A stretch of DNA of 58,285 nt from a virus (lineage: Duplodnaviria > Caudoviricetes): IMG/VR virus record IMGVR_UViG_3300050190_000052, positions 1 to 58,285 of that record; one strand, given 5' to 3'. Made by a program: the position numbers and the translations under genes. A model generated the notes under the pieces. That model was not told where the DNA came from. It did no database searches and saw only the letters and a list, made by a program, of their open reading frames with translations. This document shows, in pieces, positions 35,428 through 49,688 of this stretch (the stretch's first letter is position 1; each line of letters opens with the position of its first letter).

Positions 35428-36588
35428 CTATGCGGCAATCCGCTGGCTTGGCGCCTGAAGGCTAGTTCCTGGCCCGAAGTTCGCCCGCATGAGCACGATG
35501 CGCGCAGCCGCTACGTCGCGGTCGGCATGATACCCGCAGTCGCAGGTATGCCGCCGATCGGCGAGCGTCTTACGTCGGATCGTGCCGCATTCAGGACACG
35601 TCTGGCTTGTGCCGCGAGGACTGACCAGTTTGAGCACGCCACCAGCATTTTCGGCTTTGTAGGCGATCTTCTGGACGAGACTGTTCCACGCGGCGTTATG
35701 CACGGACTTGGCGAGCATTCCCGCCGCCAGTCCTTTGATGTTCAAGTCCTCCATTGCGAGGTGCGAGAAGCGGTCTACCAGCGACCGGGACAGCTTATGC
35801 GACGTATCCCGCCGTTGATTGGCCGTCTTGGCGCTATGTCGGGCAACCCGCAGCTTGGCCTTTGTGAGTCGCTTACTGCCACGCTTGCAGCGCGAGACGG
35901 CACGTTGCAGCCGGCGCAACCTCTTGGCGGCGGCTCGCGTATGCTGCGGTGTCGGCACGGTCTCGCCATTGGACAGCGCCACCAGAGACGTGAGGCCAAG
36001 GTCGATACCGACCGGGGTGAACGGCCGCTCTATCGGTTCGGCATCGGCCAGCGTGATCTGGAAATAAACATACCATTTACCGCACGAGCGGCTGATGATG
36101 GCCGCGCCAACCTTGGCCCCCGGTGGCAAGTCGCGGTGCCAGCGGACCTTGATTTCGCCCGGTATGCCGACCATGCCGAGGCGCTTGCTCTTGCGGATCG
36201 TCAGGCCATCACCGACCCGAAAGTCCGCACTGTCGAACATCGACTTGGCGCGGAACCGAGGGAGGCCAGCTTTTCCGCCCCTCTTGACCCGACCGAAGAA
36301 CGCCGAGAACGCCCTATCGAGACGGCGCAACACCTGCTGTTCGGCGGAGAAGCTGTATCCCGCCAAACGCTCATCCGCGACGCGGATGGCCTTCAATTCG
36401 GCGGCCTGATTGCCGTAACGCAGGTTGATCCCGCGACGCTGGTAGGCTTCAATCCGCTGTTGCAGACAGGCGTTGTACAGATCGCAGAACGCGCCGAGCA
36501 TGTCGGTCAATGCGGTTTCCTGCGCGCCCGTAGTGAACAGGCGAAACTTGAAGCTGCGGACCTGGGGCGTTACGATTTGGTCAGCCAT
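35428..36588 (-). CDS. tnpB: RNA-guided endonuclease TnpB
   Basis: SFKFRLF N-terminus; RuvC I GIDLG, RuvC II MEDL, zinc finger CPECG..CDCG, RuvC III DRDVAAA; ATG 36588 (track's 37065 start lies outside the IS). Confidence 0.95.
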   Translation of the reverse strand: MADQIVTPQVRSFKFRLFTTGAQETALTDMLGAFCDLYNACLQQRIEAYQRRGINLRYGNQAAELKAIRVADERLAGYSFSAEQQVLRRLDRAFSAFFGRVKRGGKAGLPRFRAKSMFDSADFRVGDGLTIRKSKRLGMVGIPGEIKVRWHRDLPPGAKVGAAIISRSCGKWYVYFQITLADAEPIERPFTPVGIDLGLTSLVALSNGETVPTPQHTRAAAKRLRRLQRAVSRCKRGSKRLTKAKLRVARHSAKTANQRRDTSHKLSRSLVDRFSHLAMEDLNIKGLAAGMLAKSVHNAAWNSLVQKIAYKAENAGGVLKLVSPRGTSQTCPECGTIRRKTLADRRHTCDCGYHADRDVAAARIVLMRANFGPGTSLQAPSQRIAA

Positions 36589-36652
36589 GTTGAGGTTCAA
36601 TCTCGACTGGTCAGAGGTGTCGTCAGTGTTTCCAGCACTGGCGGCATCTCGT

Positions 36653-36681
36653 CTTATACCCCAGTTCATTACCCAGTTCAA
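36653..36681 (-). promoter_or_regulatory. sigma70-like promoter for tnpB1
   Basis: TTGAAC-17 nt-TATAAG on - strand. Confidence 0.55.
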
Positions 36682-36759
36682 CGGCCGTGTGCCACGCTGT
36701 CGCGCGGCCCGGCTTTCCTCCGTCGCCTGAAGGCGACGGTTCACTGATGGAGGCGTGCC

Positions 36760-36933
36760 GTGCTTTTGGTAATTTTGGTGGTGATCTTGTTGTTCGGCGG
36801 ACTTGGCGGCGGTTATTGGGGCCAGTCGCGAGGCTACTACGGTGGCGGCGGCTTTGGCATCATCGGGCTCGTGGTGATCGTCCTGGTCATCGCGATGCTG
36901 TTTGGCGGGTTCGGACACGGCCTGAGATACTGA
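36760..36933 (+). CDS. DUF3309-like small Gly-rich membrane protein (57 aa)
   Basis: Read manually: GGAGG RBS, GTG start, MLLVILVVILLFGGLGGGYWGQSRGYYGGGGFGIIGLVVIVLVIAMLFGGFGHGLRY. Confidence 0.7.
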   Translation: MLLVILVVILLFGGLGGGYWGQSRGYYGGGGFGIIGLVVIVLVIAMLFGGFGHGLRY

Positions 36934-37028
36934 CGTTGCTGTGACCGACCACGCCACGCTCATCGACGCGCTGGTCATCGCAGTGGCGATCGTGAAGCTG
37001 CTGTGTCTCGTGGCAGAGGGGTGATTAG

Positions 37029-37793
37029 ATGACAACGCCGCGAAGATCATCCGAAGTGCTGCCAAACCCCGACCCGTCCCTGATTACCAACGCGGCGATC
37101 GATCGCGAGTCGCGGAGCCTTGAACAACGGGTCTTCGCTCGCATCGACGGCATAGAAAAAGCCATCGAGGTCCAGCACGCGGATATGGTTCGGGCTCCGA
37201 CTGAACTTGCCCGCGCGTTGCAGGCACAGCGGGATCTTTTCATATCGGATATGAAAACCTTCGGCGCCTCCATGGGGAGCCTGCAAAAAGAAGTCGATGG
37301 TATCACGAACTCGACGTTCATCACGGTCAGTAATCTGAAGGATCTTGTTTATAGCAAGATCGCCGAACTCTCTTCCGTAACGATAGAAAAGTTTGCCGGG
37401 GTTAACTCACAGTTTGAAGAGCGCGATACCCGGACCGACCAACGGGCCGGAGACACAAAACTTGCGGTAGATGCCGCGTTCGCCGCCGCCAAGGAGGCCA
37501 CTGCCAAAATCGAGGCTGGTTTCACCAAGCAAATCGAAAGCATGGCCGATCAGATCGGGACCATTGTGAAAAACGCTGATGACAAGGTTGGCGACCTGAA
37601 AGACCGGATCACCGCTATGGAAAGCCGCACCGCCGGGATGCAAAGCCAGACCACGGAGCGGCGGCTTGATGGCGGCGCAATGGTTGGCCTCATCGTCGCC
37701 GGTATGATGGCGATCTCCGTGACTATCAGCGTGCTCGGATATGCTGCGCTGCACACTGTCCCAACGGTCATTGTCGGTAAGCCAACACCATGA
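37029..37793 (+). CDS. coiled-coil protein with C-terminal TM helix (lysis-module associated)
   Basis: PNPDPSLIT..., KLAVDAAFAAAKEA..., hydrophobic C-terminus. Confidence 0.65.
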   Translation: MTTPRRSSEVLPNPDPSLITNAAIDRESRSLEQRVFARIDGIEKAIEVQHADMVRAPTELARALQAQRDLFISDMKTFGASMGSLQKEVDGITNSTFITVSNLKDLVYSKIAELSSVTIEKFAGVNSQFEERDTRTDQRAGDTKLAVDAAFAAAKEATAKIEAGFTKQIESMADQIGTIVKNADDKVGDLKDRITAMESRTAGMQSQTTERRLDGGAMVGLIVAGMMAISVTISVLGYAALHTVPTVIVGKPTP

Positions 37794-39807: not shown

Positions 39808-40881
39808 CTACGCGGCCCTGCGTTCGGCGGCATTACGTTCGCCCAGCCGAGCGATGTTCCCGGCTGCTGTGGTGTCGGACGCGCCAGCATGCGCGCAACT
39901 GATGCACACGAAACGGTCTCGCGTTGGGCGGTTCTTCCGGTCGATACAGCCGCAGGCCGGACAGGTCTGGGATGTATATCTCGGATCGACCGCGATCAAC
40001 GGGACTCCAGCAAGTGCGGCTTTGTAGGTCAGAAACGATCGAAGTTGAGCGAACGACCAACTGGAATGCGCGCGGCGCTGTGGCTTACGAACCGTTATCC
40101 GATCGCGGATGCCTTTGAGATCTTCAACGGCGATACCGCGTCCGGTGTCTTTTGCCTTCCGCACGATGATCTTGCTGATACGATGGTTCACGTTCCGGGC
40201 GAACCCCGCTTCCTTGGCGCGACGGGCCTTAAGCAACCGCCTCGCCGATTTCGTTCCCTTCCGTTGGAGTTTGCGCCGAAGACGGGCGTGGCGCCGTCGC
40301 AGGCTGGCGTTGTGGGCACCACAGAACGTCTCGCCATCGCTGTCGGCCGCGATGTTTCGCAGCCCGAGATCGACGCCGAGGTATTCGGCCGGGTCTCCCA
40401 TCGGCACGTCGCCAACGTCGACGGTCACGTAGAGGAAGAACATGCCGTCGCGGTAGATCAGGTCCGCCTGCCCGCGCGCTCTCTCAAGCGTGGCGGTCTG
40501 GTACGCACCGCACACCCACGGCATGATTTGCCGGCCGTCGTTGGTCAGGATCGAGACCCGATCCGCGCCTTTCCACGACAGGATGCGTTGGTCATAGACG
40601 ATGGCGCCGTGCGGCCGGAACGTCGGCTGGATGTCCTTATCCCGCTTGTATGCCTCAACCACCTTGGCAATGGCGCGCACGGTCATCTGAGCGGCGAGGC
40701 CAAAGTCACGCCGGATGCCGTGGTAGGCGAGTTTCTGCAATTCGAACTTGTTCGCGCATCGGTTGGCGAACGCGACCTCTGCCAAAGCGTCACACGCCGC
40801 GTTGAAACGCTCCATCGTCCGCAGCATGGCATCGGCCTGCGCGGGCAGCGGCAAGAGCTTCAATTGCATGGTCAGGTGCAT
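39808..40881 (-). CDS. tnpB: RNA-guided endonuclease TnpB
   Basis: GVDLG, VEDL, TSQTCPACG...CISC, SDTTAAGNI: catalytic D-E-D present. Confidence 0.95.
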   Translation of the reverse strand: MHLTMQLKLLPLPAQADAMLRTMERFNAACDALAEVAFANRCANKFELQKLAYHGIRRDFGLAAQMTVRAIAKVVEAYKRDKDIQPTFRPHGAIVYDQRILSWKGADRVSILTNDGRQIMPWVCGAYQTATLERARGQADLIYRDGMFFLYVTVDVGDVPMGDPAEYLGVDLGLRNIAADSDGETFCGAHNASLRRRHARLRRKLQRKGTKSARRLLKARRAKEAGFARNVNHRISKIIVRKAKDTGRGIAVEDLKGIRDRITVRKPQRRAHSSWSFAQLRSFLTYKAALAGVPLIAVDPRYTSQTCPACGCIDRKNRPTRDRFVCISCAHAGASDTTAAGNIARLGERNAAERRAA

Positions 40882-42722: not shown

Positions 42723-42867
42723 CTCGTCGCCATGACATCCGGGGGCCGCGTGGGCGGTTCATCCCCGGCTGGCGGCGCCGAATAGCGGCATCGAACTGGG
42801 ATTGGCTCCTCCCCGGCTTCCTGGCGCTATTCGCTGTGATCGCCGCGACACTTGGAGTGATTTACAG

Positions 42868-44898: not shown

Positions 44899-45073
44899 CG
44901 GTCTGGTTCTTTACTTCGACCAAACTTATTCGGAGCAGTGACGCCATTTCCTCTAACATCTCAGCGCGAGCAATGAACAGATTTGCCTCACGCCGAAGTA
45001 TCGTTGCCCTGCCCTCCAAATCAGCAGAAAACCTTTTCAGGTCATAATCACCCTTGAATTCATATCTGGGCAT
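44891..45073 (-). CDS. hypothetical protein
   Basis: 60 aa, TGATG coupling. Confidence 0.55.
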   Translation of the reverse strand: MPRYEFKGDYDLKRFSADLEGRATILRREANLFIARAEMLEEMASLLRISLVEVKNQTDG

Positions 45074-47031
45074 CAGGCATCGCCTTGCTGAATTTTGGCA
45101 TCATCTTCGCGATGTTCTGTGGCCGCTTTGTGCGCCCTCAGTTTTTCCCGCTGTGCCATGAACGCGTCGCGCAGAGGCTCGATCATCGCGGCCTTGTTCG
45201 ACCTGGTCATCCGCGAGGCAAACCCCTTCACGGCCATGCCATTCTGGAATTCAACAAGCTGATCTTCCGATGTGCAGGACAGCATGTCAGCGATCAGGTT
45301 TTGTTGCGACCGGATATCATCGGCATCGCTCGGGCTTGCCGCGGCGGTCGGTGCGGGAGACACAGGATCCTGTGATGCGGGGGCAATCAACCCAAGTAAT
45401 TCTGCTGGCGCATCAACCCCGAGCGTCTTGCACTGCTCCCGAACCGCCTTGATGCAGAGCGCGCGGAATGACGCCGGAATTTTTCGCAGCTCGGCCATAT
45501 TCAGTGCGACAAAGTCCTGATAGGTGAGCAGAGTCAGCGCATCGACCTCGACCTTGAATTCTTTCAGATGCAACGCGTTCATCTGTTTGCCGCGGTCCAT
45601 CTTAACCTCAACCACGATCGCGCGGGGAGGGTCATAGGCCAGTATGCCGGCCTCTTCCACATGCTTGTGCTCGGGACCGACTGACATCAGACCATCCAGT
45701 AGATGGGAAGCCTCTATGCTCGCTCCTTTTGCGTCCTGAATGCCATCCGCGTTCTGCTCCCAGAGCGCATCCCAATCGTCTAAATCAACCATTACTGCCT
45801 CGGTGAAGACTCTCACGAACACAAGCGGATCTGAGTAGACAATGGGGCTCATCGGATCGCCGTTCCGATCAAGAAGCATCGCCTCGAACGCCGGGGCGGC
45901 GACCGCAGGTTCACGCTCAGCCTCGGCGCGCGACACAGGCGCGGTTGCCAGTGTGGAGTCTATTAGCGGCCTGCCGGCGGCCTCTCCCTCCCAACGATCG
46001 GTCGGAATTTCGTCCAGGTGGTCAGGTGCATCTTTCGATCGCTGGGCTGTCGCGCGGTCGCGGTCTTGTGCCTTCTGGACGTCGGCTGCGCTCGGCGCTA
46101 CGGGCGATGCCGGCGCTTCCTTTGCGGCAGCTTTCCGCGTCGTCTGTCGCGGCTGCACTGCTGACGCCGTTGCCGCGGCGTGTTGCGTCTCGACGGCATT
46201 CCATGTCGCGCTGGCGCCAGTCTCCGGTTCAAACCAATCAGAGGCCGCGCTCATCTCATCCGTCAGAGACGCATAAATCTTGCTCAATTGCACAATGTGA
46301 GCCGGCCGGATCGCCTCCATGCGGCGTTGAATACGCTTCTCCAACATTTGGCGCGTCACGCCCATCCGATCGAATGCCTCGACCATTTTCAGTACCGCGT
46401 CCGGCGAGGTGTCTGCGTTGGCATGAATCGTGCGCTCGCATTCCTGGATAGCCATCTCGATAACGTCGCCAGGGATCACGGCCAGAAGGACGGCGCGCTT
46501 GCGACGCTGGCCAAGATTGAAAATTATTTCGTAGATGTCGCGTTCTTCTTTGAGGGGATGACCTCCCTGTTTTGTGTCGCGCCAGTGGCGAACCTGGAAC
46601 TGCCGTTCGTCGTAATACCCGGACTCCAGATCCCAGGCATAGGCGACGCATTCTGAGTAGCTAGGTCCCCTGCTCAGTTCCTTAATCCCTGAGGCTAGAT
46701 TCCCCCATCGTTGCGCGACCGCCTCGGCCAGGCGAATTGACGGCCCGGTGATATCCTGGCCTCCGCGCGCGTAGCTGTAGAGCGCTTTGGCGGCCAAGCT
46801 CTCCCGCGCACAATCCCGGATGATCTGATCCACTGCCCGGCCAGGATCGCGTGGCATCTGCCGGGCCATGATCATGCGGGCCTGGACCTCGGCGATGGCC
46901 CTCTGCTGCTCCACGGATATCAGCCCTTGCCAGCTGCTTACGGTGGCAAGTTCCTTCCCATTGCCAAACGGGTTTTTCCCGTCCTGGAAGGCTCTCAAGC
47001 GCGGGGCTTCGGGGCGTTCGACGTCACTCAT
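45073..47031 (-). CDS. putative ssDNA-annealing/recombination protein with long C-terminal extension
   Basis: QRAIAEVQA...PRD...ALYSYARGG..ITGPSIRLAEA..WGN...AWDLE; start set at ATG 47031 with GGAG RBS (track extension runs through CRISPR repeats). Confidence 0.6.
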   Translation of the reverse strand: MSDVERPEAPRLRAFQDGKNPFGNGKELATVSSWQGLISVEQQRAIAEVQARMIMARQMPRDPGRAVDQIIRDCARESLAAKALYSYARGGQDITGPSIRLAEAVAQRWGNLASGIKELSRGPSYSECVAYAWDLESGYYDERQFQVRHWRDTKQGGHPLKEERDIYEIIFNLGQRRKRAVLLAVIPGDVIEMAIQECERTIHANADTSPDAVLKMVEAFDRMGVTRQMLEKRIQRRMEAIRPAHIVQLSKIYASLTDEMSAASDWFEPETGASATWNAVETQHAAATASAVQPRQTTRKAAAKEAPASPVAPSAADVQKAQDRDRATAQRSKDAPDHLDEIPTDRWEGEAAGRPLIDSTLATAPVSRAEAEREPAVAAPAFEAMLLDRNGDPMSPIVYSDPLVFVRVFTEAVMVDLDDWDALWEQNADGIQDAKGASIEASHLLDGLMSVGPEHKHVEEAGILAYDPPRAIVVEVKMDRGKQMNALHLKEFKVEVDALTLLTYQDFVALNMAELRKIPASFRALCIKAVREQCKTLGVDAPAELLGLIAPASQDPVSPAPTAAASPSDADDIRSQQNLIADMLSCTSEDQLVEFQNGMAVKGFASRMTRSNKAAMIEPLRDAFMAQREKLRAHKAATEHREDDAKIQQGDA

Positions 47032-47061
47032 AGGGGTCTCCACGGTAATAGCGGTTTGGTT

Positions 47062-47273
47062 CGGTTCATCCCCGCGTGTGCGGGGAACGCTCGGAACCCG
47101 GATCTCCGTTCCGATCAAGAAGCGGTTCATCCCCGCGTGTGCGGGGAACGCCGGCATGGCAGGCCGGGCTCGATGGGGAGCTGCGGTTCATCCCCGCGTG
47201 TGCGGGGAACGCACTTCCGGCTGTTCCGGTTCGGCCTCTCCGAACGGTTCATCCCCGCACATGCGGGGAACGC
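47062..47273 (-). CRISPR. type I-E CRISPR mini-array: 4 x 29-bp repeats, 3 x 32-bp spacers, no cas genes
   Basis: CGGTTCATCCCCGCGTGTGCGGGGAACGC at 47062, 47123, 47184 and loop variant at 47245; 61-bp period; reverse complement has CCCCGC hairpin and 3' ATGAACCG handle typical of I-E. Confidence 0.97.
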
Positions 47274-47529
47274 CCATCTCGCAGGCGCGGGCGGTCGCAT
47301 TGTCCGGCTCGGCCTCACCGAACATAAGCTCGGGATCCTCCTCCTCAATTTCTTCCAGCTTAAGTCCCTCTAAGAACGGAATGTCATGCTTCGATTCGAC
47401 AAACCTCCTTTTCAGATCGCCGGCGTATTCAACCCGGCGGCTCCGGCGAGCAATTCCAACCATCTGATATGCGTCCTCGTCTGAGAGCGCCCACTGATTG
47501 TAACCGACGGTAATCACCAGCATTTTCAT
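47188..47529 (-). CDS. small acidic protein whose 3' end runs into the CRISPR array
   Basis: AGGAG RBS, MKMLVITVGYNQW...LEEIEEEDPELMFGEAEP, then reads through repeat 4 and spacer 3 and stops in repeat 3. Confidence 0.7.
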   Translation of the reverse strand: MKMLVITVGYNQWALSDEDAYQMVGIARRSRRVEYAGDLKRRFVESKHDIPFLEGLKLEEIEEEDPELMFGEAEPDNATARACEMGVPRMCGDEPFGEAEPEQPEVRSPHTRG

Positions 47530-47544
47530 TACACACTCCTGGGT

Positions 47545-48426
47545 TTAGACGCTGTGAACTTCCTTAATCACCACGCCGGGAACACTGCGCACTTTTTCCG
47601 ATCTCACGGCGTATCCGATGCGCGACGCATTGAATTGCAGGTAAACCAGCAATCTCGGGTCTTTTGCCGCGGCTGCTACCAGATCGGCCAGCTCCGATTC
47701 ATGTTCAATGAATTGCCACGTCGTGCGGCTACTCATCACGCCGCCGTAGACGCCATGCACACGGGTCCGATCGGCTGCCGGTGCGTTTACCGCCGCGTCG
47801 GCCTGCTCGGCCTCCTGATAGGCTGTGGCGGCTTTGTCGAGGGCTTCCGGATCGTCGGATGCCAGTGCCTCGGCTGCGGCAATCTCAGCGGCTGCGCGCT
47901 TGCGCTCGGCCTCCGCCTTCTCGTTCTGTAGTTTTTCGGCGTTGGACCAATCTGTGTACCAAGTGCCCCATTCGATAATGCGGTTGAGCGGGGCGGATGC
48001 TCCACGCTGGACCTTTCCTTTGGCATCGGTGACGACGATCTGGTCAATTAGCGCGTTTTTTGCCCCATCGATCGCCTTTGACGCGCGCAAAACGGGTTCC
48101 TTTTCGAGCACGTGCAACGACAGGATCGTTTTGTGAACCGACCTGAAATCAGCCCGGATGTCGGCGAGCCGGCCGAGCAATTCGTCATCCCACAATTCCA
48201 CGCCCTCCGGCTTCCCCCCAACGGTCGCCGGCTTTGTTAAGGGGTATTGCGCGAGGATGCTGTCGAGCTGCGCCGTCATCGCGACCACACGTTCTGCTGA
48301 TGGCGCCAGCACGCGGCGCATGTGATTATCCCATCCATCAGGAGCCAGGACAATCGTTGGGCCTACAATTTCCTCCGGCGGATGGTTGTGTCCAGGGCCA
48401 GGAACATAGCGCCATTCTTCAATCAT
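47545..48426 (-). CDS. coiled-coil phage protein of the recombination module
   Basis: GPGHNHPP N-terminal motif, coiled coil, RTRVHGVYG..SSRTTW, RSVPGVVI; start at ATG 48426. Confidence 0.65.
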   Translation of the reverse strand: MIEEWRYVPGPGHNHPPEEIVGPTIVLAPDGWDNHMRRVLAPSAERVVAMTAQLDSILAQYPLTKPATVGGKPEGVELWDDELLGRLADIRADFRSVHKTILSLHVLEKEPVLRASKAIDGAKNALIDQIVVTDAKGKVQRGASAPLNRIIEWGTWYTDWSNAEKLQNEKAEAERKRAAAEIAAAEALASDDPEALDKAATAYQEAEQADAAVNAPAADRTRVHGVYGGVMSSRTTWQFIEHESELADLVAAAAKDPRLLVYLQFNASRIGYAVRSEKVRSVPGVVIKEVHSV

Positions 48427-48797
48427 CAAAAATCTTCGCTCCGCAACAATCGCGTGTTGATCGGCTGTGTCGGGTTTACTGACGGGTGGCCCGGCGAATG
48501 GATCTGGGCCCAATCGCGGATTGCGTTTCGATGCGCGTAGACGGCCTCGGTGCATGGCTGGCCGTGGATCAGCAGTTGTGTGATCGGATCGTATCTGTCG
48601 CCGGTCAGCCACCCCGCGACACGTTCGTCCAGATCGTCCGGCGTCATCAACGGATACGCTGTACCGTCGACTTCGAACACGTAGCAGCCGTCCAAAACGT
48701 GAACGCACGCCGGGACTGGCCATCCGCGCGACCGGAGCCGCACGGTATACAGGCCAGGCTCGGGGCGGGAGGCGTTGCGGGGAGGGGGTTTGCTCAT
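48426..48797 (-). CDS. hypothetical phage protein
   Basis: RPEPGLYTVRLRSRGWPVPACV; leaderless start at 48797. Confidence 0.6.
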   Translation of the reverse strand: MSKPPPRNASRPEPGLYTVRLRSRGWPVPACVHVLDGCYVFEVDGTAYPLMTPDDLDERVAGWLTGDRYDPITQLLIHGQPCTEAVYAHRNAIRDWAQIHSPGHPSVNPTQPINTRLLRSEDF

Positions 48798-48803
48798 GGG
48801 CCG

Positions 48804-48874
48804 AATATCCCCGCTATCGCTTCCGGTGTCAAGCACCGTCACCAATTGACAATGGCGGCATGACACTAGATTAT
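48804..48874. promoter_or_regulatory. back-to-back divergent sigma70-like promoters
   Basis: Minus: TTGACA-17-GATATT-6 nt-ATG(48797); plus: TTGACA(48846)-17-GATTAT-6 nt-ATG(48881). Confidence 0.7.
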
Positions 48875-48880
48875 ATCCCT

Positions 48881-49192
48881 ATGGCCGACAAACCTAAACG
48901 CAAGGGAACTGCCTTTTGGTTTCCTGACAGCCTGGGAGGCTTGCTACACGCGGTCGCTCACGCTGAAGATCGCACGTTGCCGACAGTTCTGGCGCGCGCG
49001 CTTCAGATCTACGCTTCGACGAGTCCGGAATATCAGAATGCACTCTCACTCTCACAGGAATCCAAAGATGGCGAAATCAGCACCGAAGAAAGCAGCGGAT
49101 CAGACCTCCCCGGCAAAGCCGCGCGGGCGCCCTCCGGGATCGAAAAACCAAAGTGTGTACGCGGGTCCTTTGGCTTCCGCGCCAGAAACTAA
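48881..49192 (+). CDS. ribbon-helix-helix (Arc/CopG-like) regulator
   Basis: KRKGTAFWFPDSLGGLLHAVAHAEDRTLPTVLARALQIY. Confidence 0.55.
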   Translation: MADKPKRKGTAFWFPDSLGGLLHAVAHAEDRTLPTVLARALQIYASTSPEYQNALSLSQESKDGEISTEESSGSDLPGKAARAPSGIEKPKCVRGSFGFRARN

Positions 49193-49688
49193 TGGACCGA
49201 GCGACGACGACATAAAGGGATGGCTCGCTGAGGCCACCGAGATCGAGACCGCGATGGCACGCGTTCGCCAAAAAATGTCCACGCTCAAAAAGGACGTAGA
49301 GGGCGGCGCGGGCGACTGGAAAGCGCTGAAGGCCGCGCTCGCCAGCACGAAACTTTCCAAGGCCGAGGCGATAGCCAATCTCGAAGCCGCCGTCCGTTAC
49401 CACAAGGCAATAAGTGTCCGCGTGTCGTTCGACCCGGACGGACAGGGTACATTTGCCGATCTCGTTGAGGAGACGGTGAACGGGTTCTCTGGCGCAGTCG
49501 ATGAAAAGCTGTCCGCCGCACGGGCAAAAAGCGACGGCTTCAATTCGAGTCGCCTGGGTGGGACACGCGAGGATAATCCGTTCAATCCTGGCTCCTTGGA
49601 ATACGCGGCATGGCAGGAAGGACTGGATCAGGAGGTCCGCGATCGCGGCACGACGATCTTAGCCGAGACCGGCGAAGTCATTCACTGA
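49068..49688 (+). CDS. GapR/DUF2312-like DNA-binding protein with AT-hook-like and RMF-like motifs
   Basis: KPRGRPPGSK; DIKGWLAEATEIE...LKKDVEG..GDWKALKAAL; DNPFNPGSLEYAAWQEG. Confidence 0.55.
   Translation: MAKSAPKKAADQTSPAKPRGRPPGSKNQSVYAGPLASAPETNGPSDDDIKGWLAEATEIETAMARVRQKMSTLKKDVEGGAGDWKALKAALASTKLSKAEAIANLEAAVRYHKAISVRVSFDPDGQGTFADLVEETVNGFSGAVDEKLSAARAKSDGFNSSRLGGTREDNPFNPGSLEYAAWQEGLDQEVRDRGTTILAETGEVIH

Follow-up and report, generated by a model that had tools for sequence, protein, structure and literature searches.

A mini-CRISPR array beside a diverged copy of its own target in the recombination region of a tailed-phage genome

Why does a short clustered regularly interspaced short palindromic repeat (CRISPR) array carried by a virus come to lie beside one of the sequences that its own spacers resemble? 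Passages of PMC6858448 describe virus mini-arrays that target close relatives of the carrier, the orthologous loci of the carrier being mutated or deleted; the targets are said there to lie near the array, and the origin and consequences of this arrangement are called unclear. The same question is raised by the virus record IMGVR_UViG_3300050190_000052 of IMG/VR, whose whole length of 58285 base pairs (bp) we analysed and refer to as the window. It contains an array of four repeats and three spacers, and next to this lies a mismatched copy of the target of spacer 3. From the evidence set out below we consider that the feature is probably a mini-CRISPR array, carried by the virus, that serves in competition with closely related phages. 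For the adjacency of array and target, our reading favours linkage between a guide and an allele that resists it.

The record, of the linear class, with a G+C content of 60% and an estimated completeness of 88% (IMG/VR), is a tailed-phage genome, since genes for terminase, portal and tail proteins and for a DnaB-like helicase are encoded in the window. The array in it is genuine. An assembly artefact is excluded because a contig of 2836 nucleotides (nt) from run X3 covers positions 45577-48407 with no differences to the window, and because 17 of the 18 runs listed contain at least 95% of the sampled words; these runs are metagenomes of peat and permafrost, they belong to 13 studies dated 2018-2025, and many of them may themselves be source samples. 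The word share of run X18 (0.73) is below that of the others and may reflect a fragmented, low-depth assembly. Contigs from three of the four runs examined (X18, X17, X14 and X3) carry the array with no differences, and no contig that skips the array was seen in these four runs among the 32 pieces listed (117 further pieces lay outside the list). Searches of the window with PF08798, PF01867, PF09344 and PF18019 (Cas6e, Cas1, Cas7e and Cas3-HD) gave no match to any of the four families (0/4); the part missing from the record could hold a cas gene.

Three of the 29-nt repeat copies (47062-90, 47123-51 and 47184-212) are identical, and the fourth (47245-73) has three mismatches. The repeat pitch of 61 nt leaves spacers of 32 nt, and zero matches to the repeat were found in 100 shuffles of the window. 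The array is read on the minus strand, which makes repeat 4 the first in its transcript. In this reading the repeat is GCGTTCCCCGCACACGCGGGGATGAACCG, with a 7-bp GC-rich hairpin, a tetraloop and an 8-nt 3′ tail ending in AACCG, a shape that we take to be that of type I-E repeats and that resembles the Escherichia coli repeat. No Rfam family matched at the array. The energy of the hairpin is −14.3 kcal/mol in both the canonical form and that of repeat 4, and the loop form of repeat 4 was found in none of the repeats (0/1753) of bacterial arrays carrying this repeat. Both ends of the array are whole repeats. No AT-rich leader with a promoter was found beside the first repeat; instead, the coding sequence of a small gene abuts repeat 4.

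Species-representative bacterial genomes, mostly from Alpha- and Gammaproteobacteria, contain the exact repeat in 70 stretches, and the spacers of bacterial arrays with this repeat are 32 nt long in 1609 of 1677 cases and 31 nt long in seven. In the peat samples that hold the array, the repeats had a read depth 3-7x that of their flanks, and therefore other arrays sharing the repeat occur there. When host spacers were compared with the phage, 11 short matches of 17-27 nt outside the array were obtained among the 70 genome stretches, none of them convincing. Other small genomic arrays with this repeat had no spacer strongly matching their own 8-kilobase (kb) locus, with the exception of locus L051 (27/32); this match is flanked by the last three letters of the repeat and may be a second copy of the spacer in a neighbouring array.

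Two further occurrences of the repeat were observed outside complete arrays. An exact 13-nt copy of its first part lies at 42755-42767 on the plus strand, 4.3 kb from the array and apparently in an intergenic position. With one mismatch allowed, there are five matches against 0.19 expected, four of which are the array itself. The additional copy may be a relic of a solitary repeat or may be due to chance. A single exact 29-nt repeat with no second repeat nearby is present at 6937-6965 of L075, an unrelated AT-rich IMG/VR contig, and may represent a solitary repeat unit.

All three spacers have partial matches in the phage's own genome, on the minus strand in each case. Mismatches of the own sites to spacers 1, 2 and 3 number 8, 8 and 10 of 32, respectively. 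In the case of spacer 3, the match comprises 18 of the first 20 bases and 4 of the last 12, so that 8 of its 10 mismatches fall in the last 12 positions. As a control for chance, we took 300 shuffled spacers, whose best matches in the window had a mean of 20.3 and a maximum of 23; 6.7% of them scored at least 22 and none (0/300) scored at least 24. The matches of spacers 1 and 2 are thus significant alone, and that of spacer 3 only together with its reading frame, its protospacer-adjacent motif (PAM) and the alleles of relatives. An earlier note on this DNA had placed the target of spacer 3 at 18-49 nt from repeat 4, and all three protospacers within 3.8 kb. The own-genome match at 47291-322 confirmed the first statement, and the second was confirmed by a span of 3793 nt (45845-49637) on one strand; by hand arithmetic, the probability that three random sites would all be found 2.5 kb or less from the array is about 6 in 10,000. 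The microhomology GAACCG reported in the same note holds for spacer 3, in which positions 13-18 equal the last 6 nt of the repeat, but not for the window's own copy, which reads GAGCCG.

Translation of the spacers in the frames of the matching genes indicates where they come from. Spacer 1 encodes LLDRNGDPGSE against the phage's ...PMSP, spacer 2 encodes AAWQAGLDGEL against ...QEGLDQEV, and spacer 3 encodes FGEAEPEQPEV against ...FGEAEPDNATA. Because these peptides are variants of the phage's own, comparison of the sequences points to relatives of the phage, and not the phage itself, as the source of the spacers. The carrier's own copies of all three targets have diverged. The coordinates of the array, its spacers, the own copies of the targets and the surrounding genes are collected in Table 1.

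Table 1. Features of the array locus in the window
Feature	Coordinates	Strand	Remarks
Gene for 652-aa protein (aa, amino acids), N-terminal domain phrog_3657	45073..47031	-	Rad52/Red-beta-like model
Own partial copy of spacer 1 target with ATG flank	45845..45879	-	24/32 (45845-76), positions 1-17 perfect; inside 652-aa gene
Orphan type I-E-like mini-CRISPR array, 4 repeats and 3 spacers	47062..47273	-	Repeat spacing and repeat search
Spacer 1	47091..47122	-	Partial own-genome match
Spacer 2	47152..47183	-	Partial own-genome match
Small gene ('gene A'), 113-aa frame running into array	47188..47529	-	Residues 1-75 common to 92-aa relatives
Spacer 3	47213..47244	-	Encodes FGEAEPEQPEV in the frame of the small gene
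Repeat 4, first in transcript	47245..47273	-	Three adjacent substitutions, all in tetraloop
31-nt stretch between identity break and repeat 4, small gene codons 76-85	47274..47304	-	Best other match in window 21/31
Own mismatched copy of spacer 3 target with ATG flank at 47323-47325	47291..47325	-	22/32 (47291-322)
Exonuclease-like gene, 293 aa	47545..48426	-	phrog_10477, E 5e-10
Divergent promoter-like site pair	48804..48874	.	Consensus match only
206-aa gene, holds spacer 2 site	49068..49688	+	
Own partial copy of spacer 2 target with GCG flank	49606..49640	-	24/32 (49606-37); inside 206-aa gene, antisense
Holliday-junction-resolvase-like gene, 169 aa	49706..50215	+	phrog_1770, E 1e-20

The origin of the spacers bears on two readings in which they would have no role. 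The array could be a functionless piece of a host array, taken up through repeat recombination or faulty excision and then tolerated. The repeats are identical to host repeats, the array ends in whole repeats on both sides, as would follow from repeat-to-repeat recombination, and the phage is predicted to encode its own annealing machinery. Nevertheless, a random host fragment would not be expected to hold three spacers that all relate to the phage's own gene family, whose copies in the carrier are diverged. The intact hairpin of the variant repeat, the unchanged array in three of the four runs and the high word coverage in 17 of the 18 runs spread over 2018-2025 also speak against such passive capture, which we regard as improbable. 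More improbable still, in our judgement, is an RNA anti-CRISPR decoy, whereby repeat transcripts titrate host Cas6e and Cascade subunits and blunt immunity against the phage. Passages of PMC10651486 describe solitary repeats and repeat mimics in phages that act in this way, competitive exclusion of host spacers is named as a side benefit in parts of PMC7099407, and the unusual loop of repeat 4 counts in its favour. A decoy would not, however, call for three full 32-nt spacers with homologous targets and PAM-like flanks in place of a lone repeat, and the repeats are canonical rather than degenerate.

The clustering of the targets raises a further alternative, namely that the array grew in place: a first guide against a relative would have primed the host Cas1-Cas2-Cas3 machinery to add nearby, same-strand spacers to the phage array. 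Partial matches prime adaptation in type I-E systems, and partial matches of the kind that primes are present here. The three targets lie on one strand within 3.8 kb and two of them have an ATG flank, as primed adaptation would predict; acquisition in place has been proposed for archaeal virus arrays in passages of PMC6858448. Against this, the array has no leader and coding sequence reaches repeat 4. Furthermore, the leader-proximal repeat is the template for new repeats, but here the odd loop is confined to repeat 4, repeats 1-3 being canonical; because the odd loop is absent from repeats 1-3, no spacer seems to have been added in place since repeat 4 took its present form. According to parts of PMC6858448 and PMC7099407, host-like leaders are missing from phage mini-arrays, which probably obtain their spacers through recombination with host arrays. 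Primed adaptation would also leave the target at 18 nt from the array unexplained, and we consider it unlikely as the origin of this locus.

The adjacency itself is best approached through the small gene, whose frame stays open across the 31-nt stretch, then repeat 4 and then spacer 3, until a stop codon in repeat 3. The ATG that precedes the spacer 3 target is no start codon: it is Met69 of the small gene, which starts at 47529, and stands at the PAM position. Among 5.8 billion proteins, the small gene forms one 90%-identity cluster of three members: the 113-aa form of the window, on 30 contigs; P0001, of 92 aa, on one contig of 6285 bp; and P0003, also of 92 aa, on one contig of 32699 bp. 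P0001 is the same as the window through residue 75 (...ELMFGEAEP) and continues with EQPQVQVVPVPDDKVSF and a stop. P0003 differs from the window by five residues over residues 1-75 and has the same tail as P0001. After residue 75, both relatives read EQPQV..., spacer 3 encodes EQPEV and the window has DNATA. The spacer 3 peptide agrees with the tail of the relatives in 10 of 11 residues, and the one disagreement, E in the spacer and Q in the relatives, means that spacer 3 and their allele differ by at least one base. The prediction that other alleles would continue through the spacer 3 sequence is therefore supported at the protein level by P0001 and P0003, to the extent of these 10 of 11 residues. 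Further queries, namely blastn against GenBank phages, IMG/VR with the small gene, spacer 3 and the 652-aa protein, JGI metagenome contigs with P0001 and with alignment A3, and GTDB genomes with P0001, returned no match, a result that says nothing on the absence of relatives.

In the window's own copy of the target of spacer 3, the PAM-distal part carries mismatches, in agreement with the earlier claim that the phage has a disrupted copy of its own target. The differing allele of the carrier begins 30 nt from the array and keeps the PAM-like ATG and most of the seed despite 10 mismatches in 32 positions. From the behaviour of type I-E systems, the site is expected to be resistant to cutting.

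In public gene calls, two genes cross the array. A 694-aa form of the annealing-like protein (45073-47157 on the minus strand; P0004, 24 contigs) starts within the array, and P0002 (30 contigs) is the small gene in its 113-aa form, with its end in repeat 3. Gene calls that cross the array are likely to be annotation artefacts; the 113-aa frame is nonetheless open. A separate observation concerns the exonuclease-like protein, which has A185L, E186A and L188M in both relatives with a spacer 3-type tail (47874-48000 corresponds to residues 143-188); one of the two has four more changes, at residues 143-161. These changes make up a further small mosaic patch, which lies upstream of the small gene by about 350 nt.

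The gene on the other side of the array was also compared. P0007, a 652-aa protein encoded on the same 32699-bp contig as P0003, is identical to the window's protein apart from residues 4-9 and 14. P0016, of a 90%-identical lineage, has the same N-terminus as P0007, and the N-terminus of the window's protein (ERPEAPRLR) recurs in P0017, of a lineage that is only 49% identical. The differing block is thus about 315 nt long, from codon 76 of the small gene through the array to codon 14 of the next gene, with both flanks identical at the protein level, and the array lies in a block of foreign ancestry. The earlier note had the array enter by 6-nt microhomology. Because the differing block reaches codon 14 of the 652-aa gene between identical flanks, it looks more like an allele replacement by homologous recombination.

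A contig from run X18 provides information on the other edge of the block. Its match to the window extends rightwards from 47277; leftwards, at least 255 nt are unlike the window. The 30 loose letters beside the junction hold no repeat, and by hand translation they give four more codons and a stop in the frame of the small gene. If this one contig is real, the small gene has a second, natural tail that includes 47277-47304, and the array came to lie four codons ahead of that tail's stop. For the whole stretch 47274-47304, an alternative gene tail seems to us more probable than a spacer. The break in identity at about 47302, which had been reported together with 31 nt of unrelated sequence, is indeed present, but the X18 contig appears to share the 31 nt with no repeat after them, so the break would be an allele boundary and not the edge of the array. 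An array-less relative that shares 47274-47304, named in the earlier note as one observation that would contradict its proposal, would be represented by this contig if it is real. Two other origins of the junction were considered and rejected. The 31-nt stretch is no convincing fourth spacer: it has no match in the window or among host spacers, and its length is rare (7/1677). A crossover at spacer 3 would not account for the coexistence of a partial target, the 31 nt, repeat 4 and a complete spacer 3. Spacer-protospacer recombination (Varble et al. 2019, as cited in PMC7099407) could bring CRISPR sequence into a phage beside a protospacer; a crossover within spacer 3, however, would leave the target in direct contact with repeat 3 or repeat 4, which is not what is seen here.

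The traits of virus mini-arrays that can be recognized here are host-type repeats on a bona fide virus genome, the absence from the window of the four cas families searched for, and mutated own sites. Of the sampled close relatives, two match the peptide of spacer 3 (10 of 11 residues); for spacers 1 and 2, none of them offers a better target than the homologues in the carrier (24/32). In the competition that we favour as an explanation, the array would be transcribed together with the leftward recombination operon, host Cas6e would cleave the transcript, and the guides would load into host Cascade. Cascade and Cas3 would then attack co-infecting or superinfecting relatives with matching alleles. 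The guide and the resistant allele would constitute one tightly linked block that recombination can hardly split, since any recombinant that combined the guide with a sensitive target would turn on itself. Selection would thus keep the two together, and this block would move between genomes by ordinary homologous recombination. The array itself may have been gained by repeat-to-repeat recombination, possibly through the phage's own annealing machinery, a route that fits since both ends of the array are whole repeats.

Several observations weigh against this explanation. We infer transcription, processing, loading in the host and attack on relatives. No promoter-like site was found within 1.5 kb of the array, the nearest being sites 1.5 kb upstream that match a consensus only. 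Among 1662 unique spacers from arrays with this repeat, none resembles the phage or its spacers, and no host was identified by them. For spacers 1 and 2, the sampled relatives match no better than the carrier itself, and the array-less state of the relatives with P0001 and P0003 is deduced from protein calls. No array was found at 80 loci of more distant relatives with 45-66% identity (0/80), and for this reason the array is a recent and local feature. Finally, at the own site of spacer 1 the ATG flank is retained and the PAM-proximal bases match perfectly through position 17, with the first mismatch at position 18; in a type I-E host, this site might lead to priming or to weak self-attack of the carrier. 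Priming of adaptation against the carrier is a cost discussed in parts of PMC7099407.

In favour of competition, an 856-nt contig from run X3 (depth 40.9) has 38 differences in 188 bases over 49216-49403 and then jumps to 49777, omitting the spacer 2 site. It represents a diverged relative in that sample, with a divergent form of the 206-aa gene at similar depth, and a candidate target lineage for spacer 2.

The genes around the array were then considered. In the leftward direction, the order is a 123-aa gene, the exonuclease-like gene, the small gene, the array and the 652-aa gene; beyond the promoter-like sites at about 48.8 kb lie the 206-aa gene and the resolvase-like gene. The leftward promoter-like site could drive the operon that holds the array. 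A Pfam search of ten neighbouring proteins gave no match, the 652-aa protein had no Pfam or PDB sequence match, and a PDB sequence search with the profile of its family returned only weak, unrelated matches. The structural model of its first 300 residues had a mean predicted local distance difference test score of 83.6. When this model was compared with 48161 chains in VIA-align, seven of the top nine matches were Rad52, Sak, Mgm101 and the N- and C-terminal domains of Red-beta, with Z scores of 5.2-6.3 that are below the tool's safe level; RecT followed at Z 4.3. Foldseek gave RAD52 for the N-terminal domain with a probability of 0.97 and an E value of 0.03. On the basis of this model, the 652-aa protein is likely to be a single-strand annealing protein. 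Of the neighbours proposed earlier, the resolvase-like gene was upheld by its match to phrog_1770 (E 1e-20), and the annealing protein is made likely by a structural model of modest Z score.

Elsewhere in the window there are two TnpB-like genes, at 35428-37065 and 39808-40881 on the minus strand, with OrfB_IS605 and Cas12f1-like TNB domains. The product of one, of 545 aa, has an extra HTH_OrfB domain and a 170-aa N-terminal extension. They are relatives of RNA-guided nucleases in the genome of an orphan array, and are unrelated to that array.

The location of the array within a Red-like recombination module is relevant to the proposal of the earlier note that the array is an RNA-guided homing cassette. 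According to this proposal, host Cascade-Cas3 directed by spacer 3 would destroy the array-less allele, and the phage exonuclease, annealing protein and resolvase would repair it from the array-bearing genome, raising inheritance above parity. Several features can be cited in its favour. The target lies 18-49 nt from the array, and for one of three targets in 58 kb to be no more than 50 nt from the array, hand arithmetic gives a chance of about 0.5%. The sampled relatives keep the target intact at the protein level, and homology for repair would be available, since P0001 has identical residues 1-75 in the small gene and P0007 identical residues 15-652 in the next gene. Donor-type residues 4-14 of the next gene accompany the array, as they would under co-conversion. 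The array-bearing small gene is found on 30 contigs, as compared with one and one for the other forms, and together with at least four variants of the exonuclease gene. On the other hand, the contig counts mostly reflect repeated sampling of peat and permafrost sites by a run search that favoured array-bearing sequence, and a sampled target exists for one of the three spacers only. Cas3 of type I systems degrades DNA over kilobases, and its action may usually exclude the rival rather than convert it. Linkage to a guide-resistant allele explains the adjacency without any copying, and the supposed insertion junction is probably an allele boundary, as the X18 contig indicates. For these reasons, homing seems to us an unlikely explanation, and competition between related phages, with linkage accounting for the adjacency, is preferred. 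No proposal of homing or gene drive for mini-arrays was found in a search of open-access papers and bioRxiv, where the papers listed dealt mainly with homing endonucleases and mobile introns and none with a CRISPR mini-array; both terms are absent from PMC7099407.

Some known systems resemble the locus. The Sulfolobus portogloboviruses SPV1 and SPV2, as described in parts of Medvedeva et al. (2019; PMC6858448), likewise have short virus arrays lacking cas genes, with host-type repeats, spacers against relatives, mutated own loci and nearby targets. In contrast to these, the present carrier is a bacterial tailed phage with a type I-E repeat and three spacers, where the SPV arrays have one or two. 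The present array is also leaderless, whereas the SPV arrays have host-like leaders, and it lies inside a recombination operon, overlapping the end of a reading frame. Also comparable are the phage and prophage mini-arrays of Faure et al. (2019), which, according to passages citing that work, are leaderless, have the same repeats as their host and carry spacers against adjacent genes of close relatives and not of the carrier; spacer gain is presumed in these passages to occur by recombination with host arrays.

The logic proposed for homing has its counterpart in phage homing endonucleases such as T4 SegB (as presented in parts of PMC2330249), which cut the allele lacking the element, are copied by repair from the bearer and co-convert the flanks when infection is mixed. 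The array differs from these in having no nuclease gene, so that the cutter would be host Cascade-Cas3, which is RNA-guided and processive rather than making one break. A similar logic applies to IS200/IS605 transposons retained through TnpB and its guide RNA: the guide is aimed at the site from which the element is missing, and homologous repair recopies the element. In that case both the TnpB nuclease and the guide are encoded by the element, and they act on sister chromosomes after excision.

Virus-borne mini-arrays and the adjacency of their targets are already known, and this locus adds another example. It also provides a clean bacterial case for testing why the targets of mini-arrays adjoin the arrays, as it combines an abutting target, a sensitive allele sampled in relatives with otherwise identical flanks, and a recombination module of its own. 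If the adjacency only links the guide with the resistant allele, the locus would represent poison-antidote logic in competition between phages. If cutting also drives copying, the array would be a natural CRISPR gene drive that spreads through the phage population, which would explain why array and target adjoin.

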